Shown piece by piece: positions 3,517-37,469 of a DNA stretch of 55,029 nucleotides. The notes under the pieces were generated by a model, which made no database searches, was not told the origin of the DNA, and saw only the letters and a list, made by a program, of their open reading frames with translations. The position numbers and the translations under genes are program-made. The first letter of the stretch is position 1. Every line of letters starts with the position of its first letter. The stretch lies in IMG/VR virus record IMGVR_UViG_3300042569_001733, positions 1 through 55,029 of that record; one strand, 5' to 3'. Source of the DNA: a virus (Duplodnaviria; Caudoviricetes).

Positions 3517-4710
3517 ATGACGCTATTTGACAAGCTCTCTGTTCCGGGGCGCTCTGGATCAGACTTTAAGACGAAGAACAGCGCTCCTGATGAGGCATGG
3601 CGTCCACGCATGGACGTAGGAGATGACGGCGGTTATGTAATCTCTATACCGCGACCTATCTCTGATATTCCTGATGCAAGAGAATTACTAATAGAATTTG
3701 ACCTTAATCCAGAGCATTGGGCGATTACGTCGGTAAGAAAATCGCGTTGGCAAAGATACGACGGCGAGCTTTTAGAATCACAAAGAATTAACATCGTTCC
3801 AATATCATCTCAAACAGAGTTAGACCTAGACATAAAAGATCTAATGAAGAGTATGCAAAATTGGAAGCCTGGCAAGAAGCCTCCAGTGACAACCGGAGAC
3901 CTTGCCTTTATTTTTGCGCCCAGCGACCAGCAACTAGGTAAGAAAGCTAACGGAGAGGGCACCAAGGAGACAGTAGAGCGTATTCAAACAGCAACTGAAG
4001 GTGCGGTTCATCGTTTACACGACCTTAGAAAAGTTGGAAGAGGCATAGGCACGGTTGTTATCGCGCTCCTAGGAGATCACGTTGAAGGTAACGTTTCTCA
4101 GGGTGGAAGACTGCAAAGTCACTCCGCGTCGGATATGGGTCTTACCGAACAGATACGCGTAGGCATAGGTGTGCTTATGGTTCAAATAAAGGCATTTGCA
4201 CCTCTAGTAGATCGCGTTGTAGTTGCGGTAGTAAACGGTAACCACGATGAGGTTAGCCGTCAGGTTGTGCTTGACCCATCTGAAGGATGGAATACGCACA
4301 TCGCAAACGTAGCCCAGTCTATCTGCGCTGAAAGCAGTGCGCTATCGCACGTAGAGTTTAGGTTCCCTGCAAAAGATCATCAAACACTTGCCGTTGAGGT
4401 ATGCGGAACGATGATCGGATTATTTCATGGGCACCAAAGTGGAAGAGACGTTACCAAGTATCTATCAGAGCAGGCAGCGGGTCAAACTGCTCTCGGCGGA
4501 TGCGATGTTTGGTTATCAGGACACTTCCACAACTTTAGATCTATGGACGTCGGCGGAAGATTTTGGGCGCAATGTCCCACTGTTGACCCAGGCTCAGCAT
4601 GGTTTAGAGACCGACGTGGCCTAGAGTCTAACCCTGGTATATTGACCATGGTCGTAGGTAAAGATCACGATCCAAGGCTTGATGTTAGCGTAATTCCAGC
4701 CAATAAATAA
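3517..4710 (+). CDS. Calcineurin-like metallophosphoesterase / nuclease
   Basis: Motifs SDQQ, GDHVEG, GNHDE, FHGH and GHFH in the canonical order. Confidence 0.85.
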   Translation: MTLFDKLSVPGRSGSDFKTKNSAPDEAWRPRMDVGDDGGYVISIPRPISDIPDARELLIEFDLNPEHWAITSVRKSRWQRYDGELLESQRINIVPISSQTELDLDIKDLMKSMQNWKPGKKPPVTTGDLAFIFAPSDQQLGKKANGEGTKETVERIQTATEGAVHRLHDLRKVGRGIGTVVIALLGDHVEGNVSQGGRLQSHSASDMGLTEQIRVGIGVLMVQIKAFAPLVDRVVVAVVNGNHDEVSRQVVLDPSEGWNTHIANVAQSICAESSALSHVEFRFPAKDHQTLAVEVCGTMIGLFHGHQSGRDVTKYLSEQAAGQTALGGCDVWLSGHFHNFRSMDVGGRFWAQCPTVDPGSAWFRDRRGLESNPGILTMVVGKDHDPRLDVSVIPANK

Positions 4711-4804
4711 TAAAATATCCAAGTAAAGATTTTATTTATTTGGTAGTATGTACCTGTCTCCTATTATTGTCTCTGCGATGTTCTGAGAGATATAGGTACG
4801 TTAA

Positions 4805-7087
<2,283 letters not shown>

Positions 7088-7100
7088 GGGAGGATAGTAA

Positions 7101-8792
<1,692 letters not shown>

Positions 8793-8878
8793 TCCTTTCT
8801 TATAATACCTTAAGTCATCTTCTTTCCTAAAGGATAAAATATCTTTCGGGAACCTCTCTGTTCCCAACACTCGAGTGA

Positions 8879-11260
<2,382 letters not shown>

Positions 11261-11378: not shown

Positions 11379-14404
<3,026 letters not shown>

Positions 14405-14408
<4 letters not shown>

Positions 14409-15580
14409 CAACTAATTATAAGATATTAGGACAGACTGCTCCTGCTGTAGGCGGTGAATTACTTAACTACACAGTTCCCGCTGCTACCTCTACATTAGTG
14501 CGCTCAATTAACGTAACTAATACCTCTGCAACTGCAGATACTTACAGTCTTGCTATTGCACCAAAAAACTTGTTTGTAGGAATTGTTGATTATTCAACCA
14601 CAGCAACATACTCTACCGATGGTATTACTTGGACATCAACAACTTTGCCAGTCGCGTCTACTTCTGTATGGCGCGTTTCGTATGGAAATGGTGTATTTGT
14701 TGCAATCCAGCCTGATTCAACAACAGCATTCTATTCTACTAATGGAATATCTTGGAGTACAACAACCATGATATCAGATGGACAGTATGGAAATTGGCGT
14801 GGTTTAGCTTTTGGTAACGGTACTTTTGTTGCTACTGCTCAAAACACATCAGTTTCAGCTACTTCTACTAATGGTATTACTTGGACTCAAAGAAGTATGC
14901 CATCAAGTAAAAATTGGACTGCAGCGGTCTATGGAAACAATACGTTTGTTGTATTAACATCATTTTCTACTACAGCCGCCTCGTCTACAGACGGCATTAC
15001 TTGGACTGAAATAACTATGCCAGTGTCTGTTAATTTTAAAAACGTAGTTTTTGGTAAAGGTATATTTGTTGCAGTAGCAGGTGAATCAACCACATCCGTA
15101 TCTTCAACAGATGGAATTACTTGGACTGTAAGAACTCTGCCGTCTGCACCTGATTGGGTTGGGTTGGCTTATGGAAATGGTGTATTTGTTGCAACAGGAG
15201 CTTATTTTGGTTCTTCTAACGCATCGATATATTCTACTGATGGAATAACTTGGACAGCAACAACTATGCCAAATACAGCCGCTTGGGAATCGGTAGCGTA
15301 TGGAAGTAATGTTTTCGTTGCAGTGGGGTTTGGCTATGGGGGAGGTAAAGCAAGCTCAACTAACGGAATTACTTGGACTATCAGAACAATTCCAGAAATA
15401 AAAAGAATAGGATATAGCAATACAGAATCATCTAACTTTATTGCTTATAACAATTCTATTCCTGGAAATTCAACGGTAACTATAAAAGCAGGATACACGT
15501 TGCCAGCATCTGGCGGTATCAGAGTAACATCTACTAACGGTACCTCTACATTTTCAACATTCGGAGCGGAGATTTCATAA
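14405..15580 (+). CDS. Asp-box/BNR repeat beta-propeller protein (paralog of the preceding gene)
   Basis: Same ST(D/N)GITW repeats. Shares the N-terminal YKILGQ and C-terminal TFS.(Y/F)G.E.S with the preceding gene. ATGA overlap. Confidence 0.75.
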
Positions 15581-16290: not shown

Positions 16291-16328
16291 AAGGCCGTCT
16301 AGTGAAAACTAGGCGGCTTTTTACTTTT
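16291..16328 (+). terminator. Rho-independent terminator
   Basis: AAGGCCGTCTAGT-GAAA-ACTAGGCGGCTTT hairpin with a GNRA loop and a T-rich tail. Confidence 0.85.
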
Positions 16329-16331
16329 GTA

Positions 16332-16340
16332 TGTTACTAT
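16332..16340 (+). promoter_or_regulatory. Putative extended -10 promoter (TGnTAnnnT) for a leaderless sulfotransferase transcript
   Basis: TGTTACTAT separated by 6 nt from ATG 16347, with no Shine-Dalgarno in between. Confidence 0.55.
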
Positions 16341-16346
16341 TTACCT

Positions 16347-17171
16347 ATGACTACACATGACGAAAAGAAATTCTTTTTTATGGCAGGGCTTCCACGCTCA
16401 GGAGGCACGCTGCTATCTTCTATTCTTAATCAAAATCCAGATATATACGTCTCACCGCAGTCGACTCTTCCTAACACCCTAGGCGCCGCGTACAACCAGT
16501 ATCAAAGTAAAGAGAATAAAGACGCTAATCAATTTGATCATATCTACGCTGTTATGGAAACAATCATTCCAATATTCTACAGTGTCCGCCCGGAGAAGTA
16601 CATCGTCGATAAGAACTTCTCCTGGCTAGACGGGCACCCGTACGTAATTCTAGAAAACCACCTTAAAAATGATATTAGGGTTATATGTCCAGTGCGTGAT
16701 GTTTTAGGTATACTTGCGTCATGGAATAGACTATGTGAAAATGACCCTAATAACGAATACGACAAGACTATATATAAAAAATATAGAGACAAAAGCTTGA
16801 TGGCTGACAAAAGAGCCCGTTACTTCATGGAGCTTGGTGACGAAGAAAATGGAATTCTAAAGGGAATTGAAAATCTTAAACGAGTGCTATATCCTGAGTT
16901 CAAGGATAATATTCTACTAGTAGACTATGACGACCTTACTAAGGACACGGAAAGTACTATAGGCAAGGTGTACGATTTCCTTGAGATTCCTAACTACACC
17001 CATGCGTATAAGTCACTATCTACACCTCATAAGTATGAAGATACTTGGGGAGTTAAGGATCACCATAAGGTGAAGTCGACTATCAAGCGTGAAGAATACG
17101 ACTACAGTAAGATATTTTCGCCTGCAACAATTAAGCAATACTCGGGACTAGAGTTTTGGAGAAACACATGA
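16347..17171 (+). CDS. PAPS-dependent sulfotransferase
   Basis: 5'-PSB loop GLPRSGGTLL, DK motif, 3'-PB-like VRDVLGILASW, and the YDDL...IYDFLE-type C-terminal pattern of sulfotransferases. Confidence 0.85.
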   Translation: MTTHDEKKFFFMAGLPRSGGTLLSSILNQNPDIYVSPQSTLPNTLGAAYNQYQSKENKDANQFDHIYAVMETIIPIFYSVRPEKYIVDKNFSWLDGHPYVILENHLKNDIRVICPVRDVLGILASWNRLCENDPNNEYDKTIYKKYRDKSLMADKRARYFMELGDEENGILKGIENLKRVLYPEFKDNILLVDYDDLTKDTESTIGKVYDFLEIPNYTHAYKSLSTPHKYEDTWGVKDHHKVKSTIKREEYDYSKIFSPATIKQYSGLEFWRNT

Positions 17172-17923
17172 TCATTCAAATTATTGGACTACCAGGATCT
17201 GGTAAGACCACGTTAGCTAAAGCTCTTCTAGAGCACACGGATGCCATTCATCTTAATGCAGATGAGGTACGAGCTGATCTTAACAAGGACCTTGGTTTTA
17301 CTCCCGAGGATCGCATCGAGCAAGCTCGTCGTATGGGAGCTCTAGCTCGTTTGTTAGACGCGCAAGGGCGTTTAGTTGTGGTTGATTTTATATGTCCTAC
17401 CTTTGAAACGCGTAAGGTATTTGGTAAGCCAGACTACCTCGTGTGGGTAGACCGTATCGAGGAAGGACGCTTTGCAGACACAAACAAGATTTGGGAAGAC
17501 CCGCTGGAGTACAGTGTTCGCGTTGAGGCAGGGTGCACGGTAGAGGAAGAAGTTCAAATTGTCTTGACTGCAGCTGGTCTACACGACTGGAAAAAGCCAA
17601 CAACCTTAATGCTTGGACGCTATCAACCTTGGCACGAAGGCCATCATGCTCTCTACAATGAAGCCGGTAAACGAACACCGCAGGTTCTACTAGGAGTTCG
17701 CAACACGCAAGGAACAAGCGAGAAGGATCCGCTGTCGTTTGATCAGGTAAATTTTTATATCGACAAGGATCCAGCAATGAAGGACGCGATGGTTGTTCGG
17801 TTCCCCAACATCACTAACATTGTCTACGGGCGTGACGTCGGATACAAGATCGAGGAGGTTGTATTAGATGCTGCTACGCAGGCTATTAGCGCAACTCAAA
17901 AACGTAAAGAGATGGGCATATAA
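17168..17923 (+). CDS. cysC: Adenylylsulfate (APS) kinase fused to an HxGH nucleotidyltransferase domain (putative minimal PAPS synthase)
   Basis: N-terminus GLPGSGKTT, LNADEVR..LNKDLGF..EDR, FICP (CysC-like). C-terminus GRYQPWHEGH, YGRD, ISATQKR. Confidence 0.8.
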   Translation: MIIQIIGLPGSGKTTLAKALLEHTDAIHLNADEVRADLNKDLGFTPEDRIEQARRMGALARLLDAQGRLVVVDFICPTFETRKVFGKPDYLVWVDRIEEGRFADTNKIWEDPLEYSVRVEAGCTVEEEVQIVLTAAGLHDWKKPTTLMLGRYQPWHEGHHALYNEAGKRTPQVLLGVRNTQGTSEKDPLSFDQVNFYIDKDPAMKDAMVVRFPNITNIVYGRDVGYKIEEVVLDAATQAISATQKRKEMGI

Positions 17924-18025
17924 ATGAAAGAGTATACACTTGCTGTTGTTGCATCTCTTATAATTGCTGCAATTATGGTCTATTTTGTTGATAAAAAATT
18001 TGGAGGAGAGGATGAAGGTAACTAA
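17924..18025 (+). CDS. Small single-TM peptide
   Basis: Manual translation MKEYTLAVVASLIIAAIMVYFVDKKFGGEDEGN*. Starts right after the upstream stop and fills the operon gap. Confidence 0.45.
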   Translation: MKEYTLAVVASLIIAAIMVYFVDKKFGGEDEGN

Positions 18026-18215
18026 GGCTCGATCCTTTACTAAGTCGCTTAGCTACCGTATCTTTGGAACTTTAAGTTCTTTTGCTGTTGTGTTTGCCAT
18101 TACCGGCGAGGGCACATTGTCAGCCCTTATTGCCTTCTGGGAGACTGTAGTTAAAGTCGGTATCTACTATTGGCATGAAAGAATTTGGAACAAGATCAGC
18201 TGGGGAAGAAAATAG
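18012..18215 (+). CDS. DUF2061-like small membrane protein
   Basis: RSFTKSLSYRIFGT...YYWHERIW pattern. GGAG RBS before ATG 18012. Confidence 0.7.
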   Translation: MKVTKARSFTKSLSYRIFGTLSSFAVVFAITGEGTLSALIAFWETVVKVGIYYWHERIWNKISWGRK

Positions 18216-18883
18216 TGGAACATTACGACGTACTTATAGCAACGCCTGGCGCGATGCTCGAGGCGCAATATGTAAAGAGTCTAGTTGAGACGCTTGCAGA
18301 GTGCGACAAGCGCGGGATTACGTATAAGTGGCTTAATGCCTACGCCTCACTTGTTCATCATGCTCGCGAGCTAACCGCAAGTGGCGGTGAAGGTATGGAA
18401 TTAAACCCAGACCATCGTGGTCCTGTGGGAGATTCTGTAACATATAAAAAGATATTTTGGATTGACTCAGACATCGCTTGGACTCCTGAACAATTTTTTA
18501 AGCTATATGAATCAGAGTATGAAGTAGTTTCCGGGGCCTATATAGTCTCCGATGAGGTTACTACAACAGTTCATGCTTGGGGTAAACCAGGAGGAATCCC
18601 TATCCCAGAAATTATGAAGATGAAAGCGCCTCTTAAGGTTCAAAGCATCGGGTTTGGCTTTGTAACTATGAAATATGGTGTCTTTGAGCGTTTACCGCGC
18701 CCGTGGTTTAAACACTTTGACCAAACAGTTCCAACCGCTAGAGGTAATCAAGTTGTGGACTCTATCGGAGAAGACGTATCGTGGTGCATCAAAGCCTATC
18801 AAGCAGGTATTGAGATTTACTTTGACCCGTCTGTTTTAGTTAATCATATGAAGAAAAGAGCAATTACATGGCCAAAGAAATAA
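18215..18883 (+). CDS. GT-A fold glycosyltransferase
   Basis: IATP...AR...FWIDSD (DxD)...GFGF...GEDVSWC...H. Probable GTG start overlapping the upstream stop. Confidence 0.75.
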   Translation: MEHYDVLIATPGAMLEAQYVKSLVETLAECDKRGITYKWLNAYASLVHHARELTASGGEGMELNPDHRGPVGDSVTYKKIFWIDSDIAWTPEQFFKLYESEYEVVSGAYIVSDEVTTTVHAWGKPGGIPIPEIMKMKAPLKVQSIGFGFVTMKYGVFERLPRPWFKHFDQTVPTARGNQVVDSIGEDVSWCIKAYQAGIEIYFDPSVLVNHMKKRAITWPKK

Positions 18884-19581
18884 AAAAGAAGAGTGTCTAT
18901 ATCGCTACACCTATGTATGGAGCTATGTGTAGCGGTTACTTTGCTCGCAGCCTTACGGACCTTGTTATTAACCTTCTACAAAGTGGACACGAGGTCCACT
19001 TTCAAGATGTGTATAACTCAAGCCTTGTTACCGAGGCGCGAAATTTCTTAACAGAAGACTTCCTTCGCAAGGAGTATGACTACCTTCTATTTATTGACGC
19101 CGACCAGGGATTTAATCCACTGGGTGTGATTAAGATGATTGAAGAAGATGAAGACGTTATCTCCGGCGTAGTCCCGCTTAAGTTTCTAAACTGGGATGGT
19201 GTACTTAACGCCTCTCGTCAAGGGAAGATTGATCTATATAACTACACATCTGCCCATAATATTGTGCCTCTTAACGCAGATAACGTAGACCCTTCTCAGA
19301 AAATCGAGGTCGCGTCAGCTGGCACCGGGCTCATGCTTATCAGTCGTACAGTATTTGAAAAAATGATGCCTACAACTGAAGTCTACGGATTTGGCGGAAC
19401 ACCTTGTCTTAACCTTAGCAAAGGCGATGAGATTTATAACTTCTGGTCACTTGAGACTATTGATGGTATTAGGTTTGGAGAAGATGTTAATTTCTGCCGT
19501 AAATGGCGTGAACTTGGTGGAAAGATCTATACGACATTTTGGCCTCAGGCTACGCACGTTGGAACCTACGTCTATAAGTAG
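18868..19581 (+). CDS. GT-A fold glycosyltransferase
   Basis: IATPMYG...ARN...LFIDAD...GTGLMLISR...GEDVNFC...THVG. Confidence 0.8.
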   Translation: MAKEIKKKSVYIATPMYGAMCSGYFARSLTDLVINLLQSGHEVHFQDVYNSSLVTEARNFLTEDFLRKEYDYLLFIDADQGFNPLGVIKMIEEDEDVISGVVPLKFLNWDGVLNASRQGKIDLYNYTSAHNIVPLNADNVDPSQKIEVASAGTGLMLISRTVFEKMMPTTEVYGFGGTPCLNLSKGDEIYNFWSLETIDGIRFGEDVNFCRKWRELGGKIYTTFWPQATHVGTYVYK

Positions 19582-19635: not shown

Positions 19636-20700
19636 ATGAAAGTTGCCGCATACGCCATCTCGTTAAACGAGGAAAAGCACGCTGCCCGCTGGGCTGAAAC
19701 TACAAAGGACGCGGACTTCCGCCTTGTATGTGACACTGGATCCACAGATAGAACGGTTGAGATCCTACGCGAGCACGGAGTAATAGTTCACGAGATTAGC
19801 GTCAAGCCTTGGCGCTTTGACGTTGCACGCAATACCGCACAGAGTTTACTACCCGACGACATAGACGTATGCTTGTCTTTAGATATGGACGAACTTGTAG
19901 ATGAAAACTTCTTTGAGGAAGTTAAGAAGCAGTGGGTAGACGGAGCTACAAAAGGTTGGTGTGAGTTTGACACCGGACACGTTTGGTGGGGTTGCCGTCT
20001 TCACTCACGACATAAGATGTATTGGAAATATCCAATTCACGAGGTATTTGTTCCTTCGCTTGATACACAAAATGTTAGCTGCCAAATTCACGGAGTTAAG
20101 ATGTATCATAAGCCTGATGACACTAAGTCGCGCGGACAGTATCTACCTATGCTTGTTGCCGCGTCAAAGGAGTTTGGAGAGGATCACCGCATCTGGGTCT
20201 ACCTATGTCGTGAATACTACTTCTATAAGCAGTGGGAACTTGTTATCAGCGCGGCTGAAAAGGTTACAGAGTTTAGCAAGGACTGGTACATCGAGCGTGC
20301 AGCCGTGTGTCGTTGGGCCGCGGAGGCTTCGCGCAACATAGGTAAGAAAGAAGAGGCGCACGTTTGGGCAGACAAGGCAATTGAGATTGATCCTTGCGGA
20401 GAAAATTACTACGAGAAGGTCCGCTGCTACTACGACTCCGGTGACTGGGGCGGAGTCTGGGAGACGTGTAAGCTTGTCGCCGCGTGTGACAAGACGGATC
20501 ACTATCTTTCATCCGAGGCGCTATGGCGTTGGCAACTTGACGACATGCGTGGGCTATCCGCGCACTACCTAGGTGATAGAGATAAGGCTGTACAATATGG
20601 TGAGTTGGCGGTTGCAGGTAGCCCTGACGACGAACGCCTAAAGACAAACCTAAGGTTCTATAAAGCAGGAATCGAGGCACAACTAAATGGAACAGCCTGA
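19636..20700 (+). CDS. GT2 glycosyltransferase with a C-terminal TPR-like helical domain
   Basis: NEE, DTGSTDRT, FDVARN, LDMDE and IHE motifs followed by helical repeats. Confidence 0.85.
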   Translation: MKVAAYAISLNEEKHAARWAETTKDADFRLVCDTGSTDRTVEILREHGVIVHEISVKPWRFDVARNTAQSLLPDDIDVCLSLDMDELVDENFFEEVKKQWVDGATKGWCEFDTGHVWWGCRLHSRHKMYWKYPIHEVFVPSLDTQNVSCQIHGVKMYHKPDDTKSRGQYLPMLVAASKEFGEDHRIWVYLCREYYFYKQWELVISAAEKVTEFSKDWYIERAAVCRWAAEASRNIGKKEEAHVWADKAIEIDPCGENYYEKVRCYYDSGDWGGVWETCKLVAACDKTDHYLSSEALWRWQLDDMRGLSAHYLGDRDKAVQYGELAVAGSPDDERLKTNLRFYKAGIEAQLNGTA

Positions 20701-21550
20701 TGTATTTGTTGCAGTTCTTGTAAAGCAAAAAGAAGCTGTATTACCTCTATTTCTTGAATCACTTGAGGCTTGGGATTACCCTAAGGAAAAATTATTTCTC
20801 TACATCCGCACGAACAACAACACCGACAATACCGTGCAGATCTTAGACGACTGGATAGAGAAGAACGTTCATCTTTATAAAGGCTGCGTGTACGATAAGC
20901 AAAATGTCGGCGAGGCGGTAGAGCGTTTTAAGCAGCACGAGTGGAACGGCGAACGATTTAGGGTCCTTGCAAAAATTCGTCAACAAAGTTTTAACGAGTG
21001 CCTTGATACTGACTGCAAATACTACTTTGTGGTTGATGTTGATAACTTTATATTCCCGGAGACGCTCAACGAGCTTATTAAGTTAGACCTGCCTATCGTA
21101 GCTCCGTTTATTCGCTACGCGGTTGCGTTTGGCGATAATGTAGACGACGAGGAAACTGCAAAGGAACGCGAAGGACACCTTGGACAGTACTACGCTAACT
21201 ACCATCACATCGTAGACGACTACGGCTCAATCGTCGCAAACGACGCCTACTACCAGGTGCTAGAGCAAAAGGTTAAGGGACTTATCGAGTGCATGTGCGT
21301 TCACTGCACGTATCTTATTAAGCGCGAACATCTTTCAGAGCTTTCGTATTTAGAGGATTCTGATCGCTGGGAGTACATGGTGTTCTCAAACTCCGCGCGC
21401 GATAAAAATATTAAACAGTATCTAGATAACAGAACTATCTACGGTATCCTTACGCTGTCAGAAAACGCAGGCGCATCGCGCTGGTGGTACGAGTATCTAA
21501 AGGATAAAGAAGATAGAGCTGTGGCGTATAAAGATCGCTGGCTACAGTAG
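20687..21550 (+). CDS. GT-A glycosyltransferase resembling the procollagen galactosyltransferase N-terminal domain
   Basis: DYPKEK...NNTDNT..IL..W...W...RF.....RQ.......YYFVVDVDNF...TL..LI....PIVAP...YANY...VHCTYLI. Confidence 0.7.
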   Translation: MEQPDVFVAVLVKQKEAVLPLFLESLEAWDYPKEKLFLYIRTNNNTDNTVQILDDWIEKNVHLYKGCVYDKQNVGEAVERFKQHEWNGERFRVLAKIRQQSFNECLDTDCKYYFVVDVDNFIFPETLNELIKLDLPIVAPFIRYAVAFGDNVDDEETAKEREGHLGQYYANYHHIVDDYGSIVANDAYYQVLEQKVKGLIECMCVHCTYLIKREHLSELSYLEDSDRWEYMVFSNSARDKNIKQYLDNRTIYGILTLSENAGASRWWYEYLKDKEDRAVAYKDRWLQ

Positions 21551-22060
21551 CGGTTTTTCCTTCTTAGGCTTCTTTTTCTTTTCTTTATCGCGCTCGCTCT
21601 TTGCTAGCTTCTCTTCACGTTGAATATGATACGCGTCAACCGCGTTTGCGCTTGTGCGTGAGCGCCAGGTAAAGTCACAAGCCTCGCATTGAACAAGACG
21701 CATGGTTGCCCAACGTCCTCCACCTGGAACATCTACTACCAATGTCTTAAGTTTATTTGGTCGTGCGTTGCAGTAAGGGCACTGTGGAAAACGTTGTCTA
21801 CGAGATTCCTGTCCGTTCCAGGATACGGAAAGTGTACGACGAATTTCTCCTTCGTCTTTTCCTCCCCAGATTCCCCAGATCTGCTTGTGCTCTAACGCCC
21901 ACTTCAAACATTCTTTTCGTACAGGACACGAGAAGCAAAGATTCTTTGCCTGGTATTTTTCTGCAGGCTCGGATGAAAAGAAGAAATCTCTGAAATCCTC
22001 GTTTACCTGTTGTCCGCATGCTGAGTCTTTTTGCCAACTAAGATCTAGTGATCCGCTCAT
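21542..22060 (-). CDS. whiB: WhiB-family transcription factor with a C-terminal Zn-ribbon-like extension
   Basis: W...SAC...AKNLCFSCPVRKECL..AL....WGIWGG...ERR-type WhiB signature, plus CPYC and CEAC pairs. Confidence 0.9.
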   Translation of the reverse strand: MSGSLDLSWQKDSACGQQVNEDFRDFFFSSEPAEKYQAKNLCFSCPVRKECLKWALEHKQIWGIWGGKDEGEIRRTLSVSWNGQESRRQRFPQCPYCNARPNKLKTLVVDVPGGGRWATMRLVQCEACDFTWRSRTSANAVDAYHIQREEKLAKSERDKEKKKKPKKEKPLL

Positions 22061-22401
22061 TCTGCGATTACCTCGACCCACGTAATAGGAGTCAAGCCAT
22101 CTACGCTATCGCCTTCGCGTGTTTCACCGTCTTCATCGCACGCGGTTAATTCATTATCGCCGTCTACTTCTCCCGCGTAACCGTAGTTAATCAACGCGGA
22201 GTCAAGATACTTAAATCCGTTGCCTAATGACACGGATATACCATCGCGTTGTAGTGCAGACGCGAGTGCGCGACGAATAAGCTCGTTCTCTAGATCTATA
22301 TGATCCTCTGTGAAGAAGGTAACCGAATGAGCGTGTAAAGGCTCGTAGCCTTCACCCGTCCATTCCTTCCACAAAAGCTCACCTATACGTGAGTCTTTCA
22401 C
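22057..22401 (-). CDS. Hypothetical acidic protein
   Basis: ORF with AGGGG RBS. Overlaps the whiB start. Confidence 0.65.
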   Translation of the reverse strand: MKDSRIGELLWKEWTGEGYEPLHAHSVTFFTEDHIDLENELIRRALASALQRDGISVSLGNGFKYLDSALINYGYAGEVDGDNELTACDEDGETREGDSVDGLTPITWVEVIAE

Positions 22402-32664: not shown

Positions 32665-33117
32665 TTATTGTAGGAGCCTTCTAGGGATCCAACCAAGCTT
32701 TACACACTGAAGAAGGGCATGTCGTATCGCATCAAGCGCGTGTCCTTCACCGCCCTTATGCCAGTATTCCAGCTTCTTAAGTTTGGGATTATCAAACATT
32801 GCCTTGGCGTCGGAAGGTGATTGGAAGATAACGTCATCTGCCTTTCTTCCTGCGTCCATAAGGCACTGCTTAAGAATACCAATCTGCTCAAGGCTGTAGG
32901 GAGCTTGCGTCTTTTTAGCAGTCTGAGCGTTAATGATAAAGCGCTCACAGACAACAGTCACATCAGGATACTCAATAAGAGTGTCACGGATAGGCTTAGC
33001 ATACTCTTCTTGTTGATACTCACCTGCCCAGATTAAGACTGGCTCCTGTCCTCTTTCAAACGAGAATAAAGTCATGCCTGTTGCCTTGCCTGGGTCTACC
33101 GATAAGATCATCTTCAC
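32665..33117 (-). CDS. RuvC-like Holliday junction resolvase
   Basis: VDPGKATG, VCERF and HALDA RNase H-fold acidic residues. Confidence 0.75.
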   Translation of the reverse strand: MKMILSVDPGKATGMTLFSFERGQEPVLIWAGEYQQEEYAKPIRDTLIEYPDVTVVCERFIINAQTAKKTQAPYSLEQIGILKQCLMDAGRKADDVIFQSPSDAKAMFDNPKLKKLEYWHKGGEGHALDAIRHALLQCVKLGWIPRRLLQ

Positions 33118-34940
33118 TAGTATTTTTCTCCCCAGTTTTCCATAGGACCATCAATGCCGGCTGTAAGTGGGACTGCCCAACCTTCGGTAGTTGTCATGCA
33201 CTCCTTAACGATACGCTTAATTTCTTCAACGTCGTTACGCGGTGCGTTAAGAACAATTTCATCGTGCACAGGGACGATTAGAAGTTCGGTTAACTCTGCC
33301 TGATCTAGTTTTACAAGATTTGCCTTAAAGATCTCAGCCGCACCTCCTTGGGCTAAATAATTAAGCAATGTATAAACTCGATCTTCATCGCAAGGAAGTC
33401 TGCGGCCTGTCCATGTGTGAACGTACCCTTGGCCTTCTGCCTTAAGACGACGCATTCCAACATCTTCAATTTTTTGCTGGAAACCGGTCATGCCTGGAAA
33501 GCGTGCGTCAAATTGATTAACTACAGTCTTCATTATCGTCTCGGGCACACCTGCAGTTAGCGCTTGCTTTGCAACACCTGCGCCATAGAGACGACCATAA
33601 ATCATGCCTTTAATAAGACCGCGTCGTTTATCAGAACGCTGGAAGTTTGGATCGCTGTATACTTCTTTTCCAATTTCAGTGAACGGATCTGATCCTGTGA
33701 GGTCTGCCTGATGAAACATACCGATAAGGTTTGGATCTCCAGTAAGAGACGCAACCATTCTAAACTCAACCTGGTCAAGGTCAGAGGTAATAATCACGTG
33801 GTCATCGTCCTTAGGAATAAACGCACGACGTACAACGTCATCACCCTTAGGCAATGTCTGCAGCGCAGGGTTTTGGATTGACATGCGAGAGGTACGAGCG
33901 CCAAGCGTTTTTACAGAAGGGTGAACAAATCCATTGACGTTATCGTTAAGAAAGTTTGCAAAATATGTATTGGCAAGTTTATCTGCCTTGCGCTGCTTGA
34001 GTACGATTTCAGCTAAGGACTTTACCTCGTCGTTGCCTTCAATAGTAAGAAGCTTAAGTTGATCCTTTGAAGCTGATTTTTGTCCCGAAGGAGTGTATTC
34101 GTTAATCTCTGCGCCAAGAGATTCTAGTAAGCGCACTAGTTGAATATTGCTACCGATGGAAACACCGTTATATTTTTCCTTAGCCCAGGTCTTAACTGAG
34201 CCCGCGTACTCTGTTAACTCGTCAAACTTCTTCTTGGAGTAGTCAAGGTCAATACGTGCGCCGTTGATTTCCATGCGGGTAACAATGCGACGTGTCGCCA
34301 TTTCTAATTCGTATGCTCTATTGTATGGACCGTCAGGGCCACACTTTTCATAAAACTTTTCCCACAGGCGCATAGTTAAGATGCAGTCTAACGCACCGTA
34401 TGCCCAGTAAGGTTGAAAATTAGTCGGAACGGTGCCCCATGTCCAGCCGTTAGTTGCTAACTCTGTATCTAACGTATCTTGAAGAGCAACCGCGCGCCCG
34501 TCAACATATAAAGCTGCAAGACGTTTTAACGCACCGACACCAAGCGGATCAATGATATGGGCCATGATCATCGTGTCGTGCGACCTGTGCCACGGCAGCT
34601 TCCAACGTGATTGAATGTCAAACCACTTTGCCTCAAAGGCTATGTTGTGACAAACAATTTGCCCATCGAACTTATCCATAGCTTGATAGAACGCACCTGC
34701 CCACTCGTCCCACGGCATTGCCCACGCCTGTTGCCCATCACCAACCTGCACAAGACGAATTCGCCCGTGCCAAGGAGATAAGGCGTCCTTGCGATCTCGT
34801 CCTGGGTATTCTCCAGTTTCAGTATCAATCGCGATTGCATCATGAGGACGACGCTCGCCAAGCCAGGTTAAAAACTCGCCTGCCTTTTCAACGCTGTCTA
34901 CGAGGTGAAGTTGTACGTCACCTAAGCCTTCAACTGTCAT
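33117..34940 (-). CDS. polA: Family A DNA polymerase (3'-5' exonuclease plus polymerase)
   Basis: DTETG, HNIAFE and YGALD exonuclease motifs. DLDQVEFR (A), R..IK...YG.LYG (B), VHDE (C). Confidence 0.95.
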   Translation of the reverse strand: MTVEGLGDVQLHLVDSVEKAGEFLTWLGERRPHDAIAIDTETGEYPGRDRKDALSPWHGRIRLVQVGDGQQAWAMPWDEWAGAFYQAMDKFDGQIVCHNIAFEAKWFDIQSRWKLPWHRSHDTMIMAHIIDPLGVGALKRLAALYVDGRAVALQDTLDTELATNGWTWGTVPTNFQPYWAYGALDCILTMRLWEKFYEKCGPDGPYNRAYELEMATRRIVTRMEINGARIDLDYSKKKFDELTEYAGSVKTWAKEKYNGVSIGSNIQLVRLLESLGAEINEYTPSGQKSASKDQLKLLTIEGNDEVKSLAEIVLKQRKADKLANTYFANFLNDNVNGFVHPSVKTLGARTSRMSIQNPALQTLPKGDDVVRRAFIPKDDDHVIITSDLDQVEFRMVASLTGDPNLIGMFHQADLTGSDPFTEIGKEVYSDPNFQRSDKRRGLIKGMIYGRLYGAGVAKQALTAGVPETIMKTVVNQFDARFPGMTGFQQKIEDVGMRRLKAEGQGYVHTWTGRRLPCDEDRVYTLLNYLAQGGAAEIFKANLVKLDQAELTELLIVPVHDEIVLNAPRNDVEEIKRIVKECMTTTEGWAVPLTAGIDGPMENWGEKY

Positions 34941-35409
34941 TTACGTCCTCTGTTATTACTACCTCGATGTTGCACTTCTTAAAATAATCTACAGTCGCAT
35001 CCGGCAAACGATGAGCCGCACGCGTTCCAATTCGCATAACAACGCGTGTAATTCCAGAGTTAGAAATTAACTTTGCACACTGATAACATGCTGCGTCTGT
35101 TATGTATATGGTACCACCTTCTACGCGAGAACGGTCAACGTATAGTAGTGCGTTTGACTCTGCGTGAATTGATGGACATGAATCATATGTGTTATCGAGT
35201 GAGCTTAATCCTTGTGCTCGTGCACACCAGTTAATACAGTCGCCTTCCGCAGGAAACAAAGCTGCAGGACCGTTATACCCGGTAGAACTTATGCGTTGGT
35301 CCTTAGACACAACAACAGCTCCAATGTGTGCACGGCTACAGCGAGATCTTTGTGCGATTGCATCTGCAACCTGCATCCAGACCTCGTCCCAGGAAGGGCG
35401 ATTACTCAT
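34930..35409 (-). CDS. dCMP deaminase
   Basis: RPSWDE, RSRC.R..GAV, TGYNG, HAESNA, ACYQC. Confidence 0.9.
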   Translation of the reverse strand: MSNRPSWDEVWMQVADAIAQRSRCSRAHIGAVVVSKDQRISSTGYNGPAALFPAEGDCINWCARAQGLSSLDNTYDSCPSIHAESNALLYVDRSRVEGGTIYITDAACYQCAKLISNSGITRVVMRIGTRAAHRLPDATVDYFKKCNIEVVITEDVNDS

Positions 35410-35585
35410 CTATCAATATCCTCAATTCCACCAATAACAGCACTTGAAAGTATCTTTGACACTAGGTGCAGTGCTTCCTTCTTGCTAAAGCCCGCAGATC
35501 TAAGTTCAACGTACATCTCGTGGAGTTGCACGGTTGCCTCGCGAAGTGGACTACTTTGTCCAAAACCCTCTAGCTCATTACTCAA
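35406..35585 (-). CDS. Small hypothetical protein
   Basis: AAGGAG RBS before TTG 35585. HEMY..L..AGF...EAL pattern common in small phage proteins. Confidence 0.55.
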   Translation of the reverse strand: MSNELEGFGQSSPLREATVQLHEMYVELRSAGFSKKEALHLVSKILSSAVIGGIEDIDR

Positions 35586-36621
35586 TTCGGTCTCCTTTCT
35601 GATTTGCCCATAGCTCATCGGACTTGCTGATATACTTATTAGTAACGTTGACCGCGAACTCTATTGCCTCTGATGATATTCTGTACATCACATTATGGTG
35701 TTCTGGCCTTAGTATTTTTCCCCAGTAAGGCGCTAACTTCTCAGTTAGAGGAGCAAAACTTTTAGAAAGTGAAGAATCTTTAACTAAGATTGGATTAGTG
35801 TCTCCAGGGTGCATTTGAAGTCTATCCCACATCTGTGCAATATCTTCATCAGGCGTTATCGTCTTTGCAAAAACTTTATTGGCAAAGTTATTATTGACGC
35901 GTTCGTGCACATCCTTGCGAGCCTTAAATCTTTGTAGACTCGTGTAAGGAAGATGACATATTAACCAATCTTCCTTATTTGACGCGGCAACCGTAGTATC
36001 CCAAAGGTGCCAGAACTTACCGTCCCCATATTTAAGCTGGTGCTGTCCTGCGTCAACAAAGTCACCGGAGTTGTTTTTTACCAGGATCTTTGAGGGAACC
36101 CTAAACTCGTGAAGAAGTTTCTCGTTTCTTTTAACCTGCTCGTGAAACTCGTCACGATCTCCTATGTGATTTACGGACGTCACATAATGATCTATGAGAT
36201 GATAATCATCTAGTCTGGTGTCAATAAATCCTAGTGGAACTATATAGTTTTCTAGCTGCATGGCTATAGCATTCCATTTTTCACCTAGATTAGATAAAAG
36301 ATCTTCTATATCTTTGTCGGTAGGGCTAACGAGAAACTCGTCTGCGTCAAAGATAAAGTTCCAGTCAGGATTTTCTTGATTACTGATATGTAGAAGAATA
36401 TTAGTTAAGGCTTCCTGGTCAAATAAGTTGTCCTCATATCTAAATACCTCTATCTGATCCGGCCAAACCTTTTGTAGCTCAGCAAGACCATTTTTTGTGT
36501 CGTCGGTGCTGGAGTGGTCAATAACAAAAACTTTATCAACATGATAAAAAAGCGCATGCGAGATAGAGAGACCTAGTAAAGGCCACTCATTTCTTGCTAT
36601 TACTACTCCATGAATTTTCAT
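35578..36621 (-). CDS. GT2-family glycosyltransferase
   Basis: ARNE, DHSSTDDT, FDQ, DADEF, K......G.H, HLPY. Confidence 0.8.
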   Translation of the reverse strand: MKIHGVVIARNEWPLLGLSISHALFYHVDKVFVIDHSSTDDTKNGLAELQKVWPDQIEVFRYEDNLFDQEALTNILLHISNQENPDWNFIFDADEFLVSPTDKDIEDLLSNLGEKWNAIAMQLENYIVPLGFIDTRLDDYHLIDHYVTSVNHIGDRDEFHEQVKRNEKLLHEFRVPSKILVKNNSGDFVDAGQHQLKYGDGKFWHLWDTTVAASNKEDWLICHLPYTSLQRFKARKDVHERVNNNFANKVFAKTITPDEDIAQMWDRLQMHPGDTNPILVKDSSLSKSFAPLTEKLAPYWGKILRPEHHNVMYRISSEAIEFAVNVTNKYISKSDELWANQKGDRIE

Positions 36622-37469
36622 CTCTTATTGACTGCCTTAATCATGGCGTTTGCATACCATTGCTCAAAAGGGTGAAGACCGTACAGAAGCGCTTTTTCCT
36701 CATGATGAATTGCAGCCGTCAACGCGTTCATTGCGTAGTCTGAAACTTCTCCCCAAGAGTTACCTACCATAGCAGGGATCTTTTCGTACGGAGCGTAAGT
36801 ATGTTTTAAGCTTTCTGCAGAGTCATAGTGTTGCTCGTAGATATGAAGAGATCCGACGTGATGGTGATACGTTCCTGGCTCGATACCCAGGATAGATGCG
36901 ATAGCAAGTTGAACGCGGGTAAACTGGAAGAAGTCGTACGCCGCTCCTAGCCATACGTCGTTTGAGCGCATGTAAACGCTCATGTTAAGTTTGTTGTTGC
37001 GAATCCTGAATTGATGAAGGATAGTGCACGGGTAGTCTCGCTTATTTGCAAGAAGATCTAGCTCCGGATTCCAAATCGTAACGACAGCCTGTCGCGTATC
37101 TGGGTCTGCCTTAAGTCTTTCAACTATAGGAGCATACTGTGACTGTGTGCGAATTCCATACGCTCCGTGAAATAATCCGTTATCCTCGGTATAGTTAGCA
37201 AACTGTGGACCGATGGCAATAACAAGTTTCGGTGTGCTTGCACCTGCGATAAGCTGGCAAGCCTCAACCGCACCGATACCTGGAACAGTTCCACGTCCTA
37301 CACCTAAAGGTAAGGTGTTGTACACGTCATCTATACGAATAATTGCATCTTCAATCTCGCGCGTCTTCATACCGCGAGGAGCGACCTCCTTGCCGTATTT
37401 AAGTACGTGCTGCACAAGATCAACGTATCCGTTAACCGCGTCAGGTATGTTAATTATCGCAGTATCCAT
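36618..37469 (-). CDS. Thymidylate-synthase-fold enzyme, probably dCMP-specific (hydroxymethylase-like)
   Basis: YG.R, DTRQAV, catalytic PC, MRSNDVWLGAAYD, SLHIYE. Asp at the position of ThyA Asn177. Confidence 0.8.
   Translation of the reverse strand: MDTAIINIPDAVNGYVDLVQHVLKYGKEVAPRGMKTREIEDAIIRIDDVYNTLPLGVGRGTVPGIGAVEACQLIAGASTPKLVIAIGPQFANYTEDNGLFHGAYGIRTQSQYAPIVERLKADPDTRQAVVTIWNPELDLLANKRDYPCTILHQFRIRNNKLNMSVYMRSNDVWLGAAYDFFQFTRVQLAIASILGIEPGTYHHHVGSLHIYEQHYDSAESLKHTYAPYEKIPAMVGNSWGEVSDYAMNALTAAIHHEEKALLYGLHPFEQWYANAMIKAVNKR

Follow-up and report, generated by a model that had tools for sequence, protein, structure and literature searches.

A phage-encoded fusion of a compact APS kinase and a minimal HxGH nucleotidyltransferase domain as a possible one-gene PAPS synthase

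The 55,029-nucleotide stretch analysed here (the window) is an IMG/VR virus record, IMGVR_UViG_3300042569_001733, estimated to be ~43% complete. Its gene at 17168..17923 on the plus strand encodes a 251-aa protein in which a compact adenosine 5′-phosphosulfate (APS) kinase domain (aa 1-137) is fused to a 114-aa nucleotidyltransferase (NT) domain with an HxGH motif (aa 138-251). Judged from sequence and predicted structure, this fusion gene may be a one-gene synthase of 3′-phosphoadenosine 5′-phosphosulfate (PAPS) built on a new, non-Sat family of ATP sulfurylases, a proposal that we regard as evenly balanced. The NT domain is linked to APS metabolism by its fusion to true CysC and by its co-occurrence and synteny with aprBA in SAR11 genomes that lack Sat and CysD.

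Domain structure of the fusion protein

The open reading frame (ORF) extends from an ATG at 17168 to a TAA at 17921-17923. The initial annotation had described a kinase followed by a small HxGH domain with three motifs, and this was borne out by the ORF, by the positions of the motifs (GRYQPWHEGH, aa 150-159; IVYGRD, aa 218-223; ISATQKR, aa 240-246) and by their conservation. In 34 phage homologues, M1-I2-I3 and all three motifs were invariant or nearly so, and the retention of M1-I2-I3 confirms the start codon. In a set of 51 diverse full-length homologues of 34-68% identity, K13, R35, G221, R222, G225 and R246 were invariant (51/51), while G150, R151, Q153, P154, H156, G158, H159, R178 and S241 were kept in at least 90%. 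AlphaFold2 modelled the fusion protein with a pLDDT of 96.2 and a pTM of 0.82, and the NT domain alone with a pLDDT of 95.1.

The kinase domain (17168..17578, plus strand) was delimited by Pfam, by phmmer against the PDB and by fold. It carries a Walker A motif (GLPGSGKT), NADEVR, LGFTPEDR..EQARR, DFICP and a short lid (RFADTN..WEDP). Pfam APS_kinase (PF01583) was matched with 62.1 bits against a gathering cut-off of 21.1 (E 8e-17) at profile positions 4-90 of 152 only, which marks the domain as shortened; the cut-off of the NCBIfam equivalog TIGR00455 (138.7) was missed with 63 bits. The phmmer search retrieved the APSK domain of PAPSS1 (E 4e-11), and the residue alignment with the PAPSS1 kinase keeps Walker A, D-x-x-R, LGF[ST]PEDR and RR (R35, F44 and R49 positions). 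The DxxR arginine, the LGF phenylalanine, the EDR arginine and the RR pair presumably serve the APS site; D32, F44, R49 and Q52 were kept in at least 90% of the 51 homologues, besides the invariant R35.

By fold, the best match in VIA-align was CysC of M. tuberculosis (4rfv_A; Z 19.3, rmsd 1.5, 127 aligned), and further APS-kinase chains followed with Z values of 18.8 (2yvu), 17.7 (2gks) and 17.0 (3cr8). Foldseek agreed (2ofw, E 4.7e-10). Other kinases reached Z 15.8 (gluconate kinase), ~13 (shikimate kinase) and 10.5-11.5 (dephospho-CoA kinases). The earlier description of a shortened CysC-like kinase holds in both sequence and fold, and on these data the kinase half is very probably a true APS kinase.

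The NT domain (17579..17923, plus strand, including the stop codon) was delimited by profile, fold and conservation. Its motifs are GRYQPWHEGH, VR178, PNITN, YGRDVGY and ISATQKR, and the signatures G-R-x-Q-P-x-H-x-G-H, P-N, G-R-x-V-G-Y and S-x-T-x-x-R were invariant in 23 diverse NT sequences, with YGRDVGY of the phage reading YGRGVGY in SAR11. It thus has the HxGH and ISxTxxR motifs of the nicotinamide mononucleotide (NMN) adenylyltransferase (NMNAT) type on a Rossmann core, motifs that are common to the whole HIGH superfamily. A HMMER profile of the 51 homologues, run against the PDB, found archaeal NMNAT 1f9a (E 1.1e-11), NadM 2qjt (E 1.3e-10) and 1ej2 and 4yp7 (~6e-10). The alignment was limited to residues ~3-82 of NMNAT, and neither profile nor fold search returned a match for NMNAT beyond ~residue 80 or for its ~50 C-terminal residues. 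The window NT missed the NMNAT family cut-offs (TIGR01527, 16.4 against 181.2 bits; PRK01153, 21.2 against 127), and every NT domain scored reached 16-58 bits against cut-offs of 127-181.

The initial annotation had suggested that the small domain may be a stripped-down ATP sulfurylase of the Sat type, and that its predicted structure be compared with Sat as against NMN and cytidylyltransferases. In VIA-align, the fold comparison left NMNAT (1f9a, Z 9.6; NadM 2qjt, 9.5), phosphopantetheine adenylyltransferase (PPAT; 4nah, 9.5) and one Sat, the ATP sulfurylase of T. thermophilus (1v47, 8.6), tied within 1 Z unit, so that no single family is assigned by fold; for 1v47_B, the rmsd was 2.7 over 110 aligned residues, and other Sat chains gave Z 5.3-6.5. 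Foldseek matches were weak, the top one being PPAT 3nv7 (E 6e-4). The sequence comparisons did not sustain a Sat origin. Pfam gave no PF01747 match in the fusion protein at E up to 0.1, and the family profile matched no Sat catalytic domain, Sat-containing PDB chains being found only via their kinase-like domain. When the 23 NT sequences were compared with 12 Sat catalytic domains in hhalign, 25 columns round the histidine motif aligned with a probability of 11%. The Sat sequences compared read FQTRNPxHR[AS]H, IVGRDHAG and [IL]SGTxxR; hence motifs of the IVGRD and ISGT..R type do occur in Sat, as had been noted, but its histidine motif is HxxH and not HxGH. QTRNPxHRxH and GRDHAG are missing in the phage NT, which has GRYQPWHEGH and YGRDVGY instead. 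An origin of the NT domain by trimming of Sat was ruled out by the NMNAT-directed profiles and the hhalign probability of 11%. As the NMNAT profile matches, the tied folds and the restriction of hhalign to 25 columns indicate, the NT domain forms a small family of its own within the HIGH superfamily; its nearest relative is NMNAT, and it is not a cut-down Sat.

The standing of PPAT among the fold matches raises a CoA-synthase-like pair, in which the NT domain would be a PPAT and the kinase would phosphorylate the 3′-OH of dephospho-CoA. PPAT was tied for the best fold and was the top Foldseek match, the adenosine 3′-OH is phosphorylated in the CoA and PAPS pathways alike, and the neighbours of the homologues in SAR11 Ia include CoA-binding and enoyl-CoA hydratase genes. 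Dephospho-CoA kinases, however, fit the kinase far worse than APS kinases do, the APS-site motif LGFTPEDR is kept, and the aprBA and sulfotransferase contexts described below would go unexplained. We consider a CoA-related function highly improbable.

Distribution of the family and its context in SAR11

Over its full length, the fusion protein corresponds to PHROG 10255 'kinase' (E 5.6e-68). A tblastn search matched 19 phage records, 12 of which align over 80% or more of the protein length, with 37-39% identity; these belong to cultured phages, namely the Xylella phages Sano, Salvo and Bacata and phages of Xanthomonas, Stenotrophomonas and Clavibacter. Ralstonia phages phiRSL1 and RsoM2USA matched in the kinase half only. 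ORF238 of phiRSL1 (L003, 3989..4684) has the same compact kinase with a different C-terminal domain without HxGH; its cluster holds two sugar nucleotidyltransferase genes, and a Sulfotransfer_2 gene lies ~5 kb off.

A search of 5.8 billion proteins returned 4243 matches, the best 120 of which were mostly 251 aa long and, if they bore a name at all, were called adenylylsulfate kinase, adenylate kinase family enzyme or Kti12. A search of representatives gave 4901 matches at E up to 1e-3, 95 of them at E up to 1e-30, and when one genome per species was scanned, SAR11, SAR86 and alphaproteobacterial genomes proved to carry relatives of full length. The fusion architecture is not unique to the window phage. 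Besides kinase-NT, the order NT then full CysC was found (P0164; TIGR00455 233.6 bits, cut-off 138.7), as were the reverse order NT-kinase (P0258, P0147), the stand-alone NT (P0150, and as a gene by itself in SAR11 and in viruses), DUF4118-kinase-NT (P0126), kinase-DUF4118 (e.g. P0202) and kinase-DUF2061 (P0265). The compact kinase was repeatedly joined, at one end or the other, to a small membrane domain, DUF2061 or DUF4118 (P0265, P0126, P0202, P0205, P0207, P0211, P0223).

These architectures bear on the idea that the NT domain no longer transfers nucleotides and is a nucleotide-binding regulatory or oligomerisation module of the kinase, mirroring fungal ATP sulfurylase, which carries an inactive APS-kinase-like domain. 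At 114 aa, the domain is unusually short against fold-match chains of 115-586 residues, and the chains 1i2d and 1m8p match through their APS-kinase-like domain. Loss of catalysis nevertheless appears very improbable to us, given that the catalytic signatures are invariant in the 23 diverse NT sequences and that the NT is also a stand-alone gene in SAR11 and viruses.

Counts in SAR11 were made in 151 Pelagibacteraceae genomes of 80% completeness or more, with one of them (G154) flagged as unpublished and no claim based on it alone. The NT domain was found in 96 genomes, AprA in 81, Sat in six (five with NT) and CysD in seven (none with NT). NT accompanied AprA in 79 genomes and was missing in two with AprA (Fisher 3.8e-23, uncorrected for phylogeny), and it was set apart from CysD (Fisher p 6.6e-4, likewise uncorrected). 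Neither Sat nor CysD was present in 75 of the 79 genomes with AprA and NT. In 30 genomes, the NT gene precedes aprA by at most 4 kb and shares its contig and strand.

The locus L165 (G088:C2), from a genome without Sat or CysD, reads Cys/Met-pyridoxal-phosphate enzyme, MFS transporter, TENA-like protein, NT alone, 263-aa membrane protein with four hydrophobic segments, AprB, AprA, 116-aa ORF and TauE, followed by an altronate-dehydratase-type gene on the opposite strand; the part headed by the stand-alone 126-aa NT (4206..4586) and ending with TauE occupies 4206..9347. At L166, a fused kinase-NT is placed three genes further upstream, with TENA-like, cytochrome c and SET genes between, and L103 encodes kinase (141 aa) and NT (124 aa) in two genes that overlap. 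In four of five NT-alone genomes, the query used did not detect the kinase. Of 30 Pseudomonadota sat loci sampled for comparison, 20 had aprB directly downstream of sat, and 18 had aprA there as well; by the position of aprB, the NT occupies the slot of sat. The stand-alone NT of L165 and of 29 further SAR11 genomes may supply the APS-to-sulfate step that is missing.

In the passages cited, Ca. P. ubique is described as having kept aprBA with cysDNCHIJ and sat missing (PMC5069961, PMC3448164), sat as occurring in only 1/7 SAR11 strains (PMC3448164), and aprBA as core genes under strong purifying selection in a pathway incomplete for want of sat and cysDN (PMC3448164, PMC12636525, PMC5069961), a pathway still called incomplete in 2025 (PMC12636525). 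In the literature searched, no role was assigned to the C-terminal domain and no alternative SAR11 ATP sulfurylase was proposed; supplements outside the search (Grote 2012 tables, ISME J 2025 Fig. S13, COBRA cysC tables) may list the genes.

Other cellular homologues lie in surface-polysaccharide clusters, and at the SAR11 locus L090, a Sulfotransfer_1 gene is 2.8 kb upstream of the fused homologue. A polysaccharide cluster of a gammaproteobacterial metagenome-assembled genome with split kinase and NT genes (L128) also contains, at 11687..14282, a 197-aa PAPS_reduct protein and an Inositol_P (CysQ-type family) phosphatase.

Such clusters accord with an account in which the kinase half alone takes part in sulfur metabolism, boosting PAPS from host APS, while the NT domain adenylylates NMN or nicotinic acid mononucleotide, a sugar phosphate or a phospho-glycan precursor for glycosylation genes. 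The best sequence matches of the NT domain are NMNATs, its homologues in polysaccharide clusters stand beside other sugar nucleotidyltransferases, and freshwater phage cysC genes, reported as transcribed, are treated as plain cysC in the passages of PMC10914622 concerned. That account leaves unexplained both why the NT stands alone ahead of aprMBA, with no kinase, in SAR11 that lack Sat and why it co-occurs with AprA in 79/81 genomes. As for NMN, the NT scores are far below the NMNAT cut-offs, and the NMNAT fold past ~residue 80, with its C-terminal ~50 residues, is unmatched. NadD was above its cut-off in three of five SAR11 genomes tested and the NT is missing from 55/151, so that the NT is not needed for NAD synthesis. 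We hold a different acceptor of this kind to be unlikely.

Genes around the fusion gene in the window and in related phages

The window phage is siphovirus-like, with a tape measure protein, a major tail protein and collagen-like fibres, and a WhiB gene (21542..22081) points to an actinobacterial host. Upstream of the fusion gene lies a sulfotransferase gene (16302..17171, plus strand; Pfam Sulfotransfer_3 E 2.6e-13, Sulfotransfer_1 E 4.4e-13; PHROG 27463 E 7.9e-65 over aa 21-288), whose true start may be an internal ATG ~45 nt downstream of 16302. Its N-terminus carries GLPRSGGT, which we take to be a PAPS-binding type motif. Its TGA (17169-17171) and the ATG of the fusion gene share a 4-nt overlap, ATGA. 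A functional link had been read from this overlap, and the ATGA, which indicates translational coupling, agrees with it.

Downstream follow a candidate 33-aa ORF with one hydrophobic stretch (MKEYTLAVVASLIIAAIMVYFV...; 17924..18025, plus strand, from translation), which overlaps the start of the next gene, and the gene of a small 67-aa DUF2061 membrane protein (18012..18215, plus strand; Pfam E 8.7e-16), the ATG of which at 18012 is preceded by GGAGGAG. Four glycosyltransferase-like genes come next in a row on the plus strand, at 18185..18883, 18868..19581, 19636..20700 (GT2 plus TPR) and 20687..21550. They match PHROG 1574 and 34859 'glycosyltransferase', while the Pfam families Glycos_transf_2, Glyco_tranf_2_4 and Anp1 were mostly under or near cut-off, the sole cut-off reached being that of Anp1 in the last gene (28.9 against 28.8 bits). 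These genes may build the acceptor glycan for sulfation.

Related viral loci were sampled as 80 IMG/VR loci at 58-73% identity, 52 of them with at least 3 kb on each side. A DUF2061 homologue is downstream of the fusion gene in 75, and the neighbours include WhiB, DUF7455, CHAP, Hsp20, thioredoxin, peroxiredoxin and ferritin; such surroundings look like an auxiliary-gene island of freshwater actinophages. Sulfotransferases of three Pfam families are upstream in 13 loci and directly abut the fusion gene in four. The window-type sulfotransferase was near the fusion gene in just three by tblastn, which rules it out as a conserved neighbour. ORFs of one cluster (cluster 7), mostly upstream of the fusion gene at a median start offset of -890, have no Pfam match and by eye look like 2OG-Fe(II) oxygenases, not sulfotransferases.

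The kinase fusions to DUF2061 or DUF4118, together with the DUF2061 gene in 75/80 loci, suggest that the enzyme works at the membrane. A search for longer, fused DUF2061 forms yielded one uninformative match, and a cluster search gave DUF2061 clusters only. Prediction of a complex between the fusion protein and DUF2061 scored 0.00, which is evidence neither way. One preprint places DUF2061 at a nod locus of Mesorhizobium, alongside nodH, nodP and nodQ.

A number of results weigh against a PAPS synthase and have to be set beside the above. A clear PAPS consumer is not visible in many relatives. No PAPS_reduct (PF01507) match was obtained in the window or in four large relatives, which rules out PAPS reductase as the phage-encoded consumer there; the near-complete relatives G457 (100%), G458 (98%) and G459 (90%) were without PAPS_reduct, and Sulfotransfer_1 gave only sub-threshold matches, in two of these three. 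Sulfotransfer_2 and Sulfotransfer_3, for which G457 and G456 were tested, were absent at cut-off, with one sub-threshold Sulfotransfer_3 match in G456. In Xylella phage Sano, the fusion gene is located among DNA-metabolism genes with no sulfotransferase match. In 30 Pseudomonadota loci (L205-L234), bacterial DUF2061 adjoins katG with a LysR-type regulator, ferritin or Dps, cytochrome c peroxidase and pyridine-nucleotide disulfide reductases; cysC, sat or cysN was beside it in 0/30, and this excludes DUF2061 as a general marker of sulfate activation. These bacterial surroundings suggest an oxidative-stress or iron role, which leaves the tight pairing in phages unexplained. In SAR11, the statistics ignore shared ancestry, 49 of the 79 genomes that carry NT and AprA do not have the two genes side by side, AprA is missing in 17 NT-positive genomes, and a displacement of Sat by NT was not seen, as most Sat-positive genomes carry both. 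At the level of the domain, the closest relatives are NMNATs, whose ancestry leaves room for other acceptors, the fold search settled on no one family, and homology to Sat did not extend past the histidine motif.

To the same side belong PnuC-like ORFs of 70-91 aa in seven of the 80 loci (L008, L025, L036 and L074, plus three more), four of them adjacent. They adjoin the fusion gene or DUF2061, their match to the N-terminal part of PnuC (NMN_transporter) is borderline (27.4 against a cut-off of 27.3 bits), and they hint at nicotinamide riboside salvage. A permuted NadR-like salvage system may be envisaged, in which the P-loop domain acts as a nicotinamide riboside kinase and the NT domain forms NAD+, the precursor being imported by DUF2061 or the PnuC-like proteins; salvage of this type would help the phage against defence by NAD+ depletion. 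The NT resembles NMNAT, and the NadR structures 8x7f, 6gye and 1lw7 are among the fold and profile matches. The kinase, however, clearly resembles APS kinases (Z 17-19.3) more than it does other kinases (at most 15.8), and AAA_28, which we take to be the NadR kinase family, was matched at just E 5.5e-4 with 20.6 bits, under its cut-off of 27. The domain order is kinase then NT and not NMNAT then kinase, and the fusion to true CysC and the aprBA synteny would be left without explanation; no Nampt-type partner turned up, and none was searched for. We judge NadR-like salvage to be improbable.

Further observations concern single loci. In Sano, gp28 (L001, 2199..2876), annotated as cysteine dioxygenase, lies ~3 kb upstream of the kinase-NT gene and could supply sulfite or sulfate via cysteine sulfinate. 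In the window, a dCMP deaminase, a GT2 glycosyltransferase and a thymidylate-synthase-like gene stand in a row at 34930..37469 (minus strand), adjoining the DNA polymerase gene (33117..34940), and could form a DNA base modification or glycosylation module. Two neighbouring proteins of 407 and 391 aa (13185..15580), encoded directly after four collagen-like tail-fibre genes, consist of ~45-aa repeats ending in S-T-D-G-I-T-W-T; neither had a Pfam match, and the first had no PHROG match, the second being outside that scan.

Proposed function and comparison with known systems

In the PAPS synthase that we propose, the NT domain, an offshoot of the NMNAT type, would adenylylate sulfate (ATP + sulfate -> APS + pyrophosphate (PPi)). 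We infer this activity from the gene fusions and from the co-occurrence and synteny data; with most of the NMNAT acceptor part lost and two extra conserved arginines, R178 and R222, the domain would suit a small anionic acceptor. The compact APS kinase would then, in a step well supported by homology, phosphorylate the 3′-OH of APS to give PAPS, pulling the unfavourable first step forward. The PAPS would go to the coupled upstream sulfotransferase. The four glycosyltransferase-like genes downstream probably provide its acceptor, a glycan of the virion or of the actinobacterial host envelope, and the enzyme is probably kept at the membrane by the conserved membrane protein DUF2061. Such a synthase might spare the phage the need for host enzymes, as the initial annotation had supposed. 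In SAR11, the NT, with or without the kinase, would work in the opposite direction behind AprBA (APS + PPi -> ATP + sulfate), replacing the missing sat.

More broadly, the NT domain may found a class of ATP sulfurylase that evolved independently of Sat and CysDN, the third in all, and that derives from an NMNAT-like ancestor minus its acceptor-binding parts; it would then give phages the smallest known one-gene PAPS synthase and SAR11 its missing 'sat'. We put this forward tentatively, with a little less than even confidence. If true, sulfate activation, whose first step is so far attributed to Sat and CysDN, would gain a new enzyme family for that step, and a recognised gap in SAR11 sulfur metabolism would close, with SAR11 gaining ATP from sulfite derived from organosulfur compounds. 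The widespread, transcribed phage 'cysC' genes would be re-read as complete PAPS synthases, enabling phages to sulfate glycans even where the host activates little or no sulfate, and a PAPS synthase of 251 aa would be a handy tool for PAPS regeneration in enzymatic sulfation.

Compared with CysC (PF01583; 4rfv, 2ofw, 2yvu), the phage kinase shares the P-loop fold (Z 17-19.3), Walker A, D-x-x-R, LGF[ST]xEDR..RR and the [SD]F[IV][SC]P strand, but it has only ~137 aa, where the solved APS-kinase chains matched have 143-211 residues, and it reads NAD in place of DGD and has a shortened lid. With archaeal NMNAT and NadM (1f9a, 1ej2, 2qjt), the NT domain has in common GRFQPxHxGH, NP[FL] and the IS[AG]TxxR helix (E 1e-11 to 1e-9, Z 9.5-9.6). 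It differs in aligning over the first ~75-80 residues only, without the ~50 C-terminal residues, in the extra, nearly invariant R178 and the invariant G-R222-x-V-G-Y, and in its partners, which here were always of the APS-kinase type and never Nudix.

With Sat (PF01747; 1v47), the NT domain would share the proposed reaction, besides the Rossmann core of the HIGH superfamily, G-R-D followed by S-x-T-x-x-R, and the position upstream of aprBA. It has HxGH and not HRxH, no QTRN, and GRDVGY and not GRDHAG, and it amounts to about half of the 212-position catalytic domain of Sat, without the N-terminal domain. Animal PAPSS1/2 (1x6v) show the same order of kinase then adenylyltransferase in one chain, and the kinase halves align; yet PAPSS1/2 have 630 aa as against 251 aa in the phage, and their C-terminal half is of the Sat type, with no homology to the phage NT past the HxGH stretch. 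The phage 'cysC' auxiliary metabolic genes and PHROG 10255 are the same gene family as the fusion, with an existing annotation that covers the kinase alone. Phage cysC and the PHROG family being already known, what would be new here is an enzyme family for a known reaction, within a known bifunctional logic.

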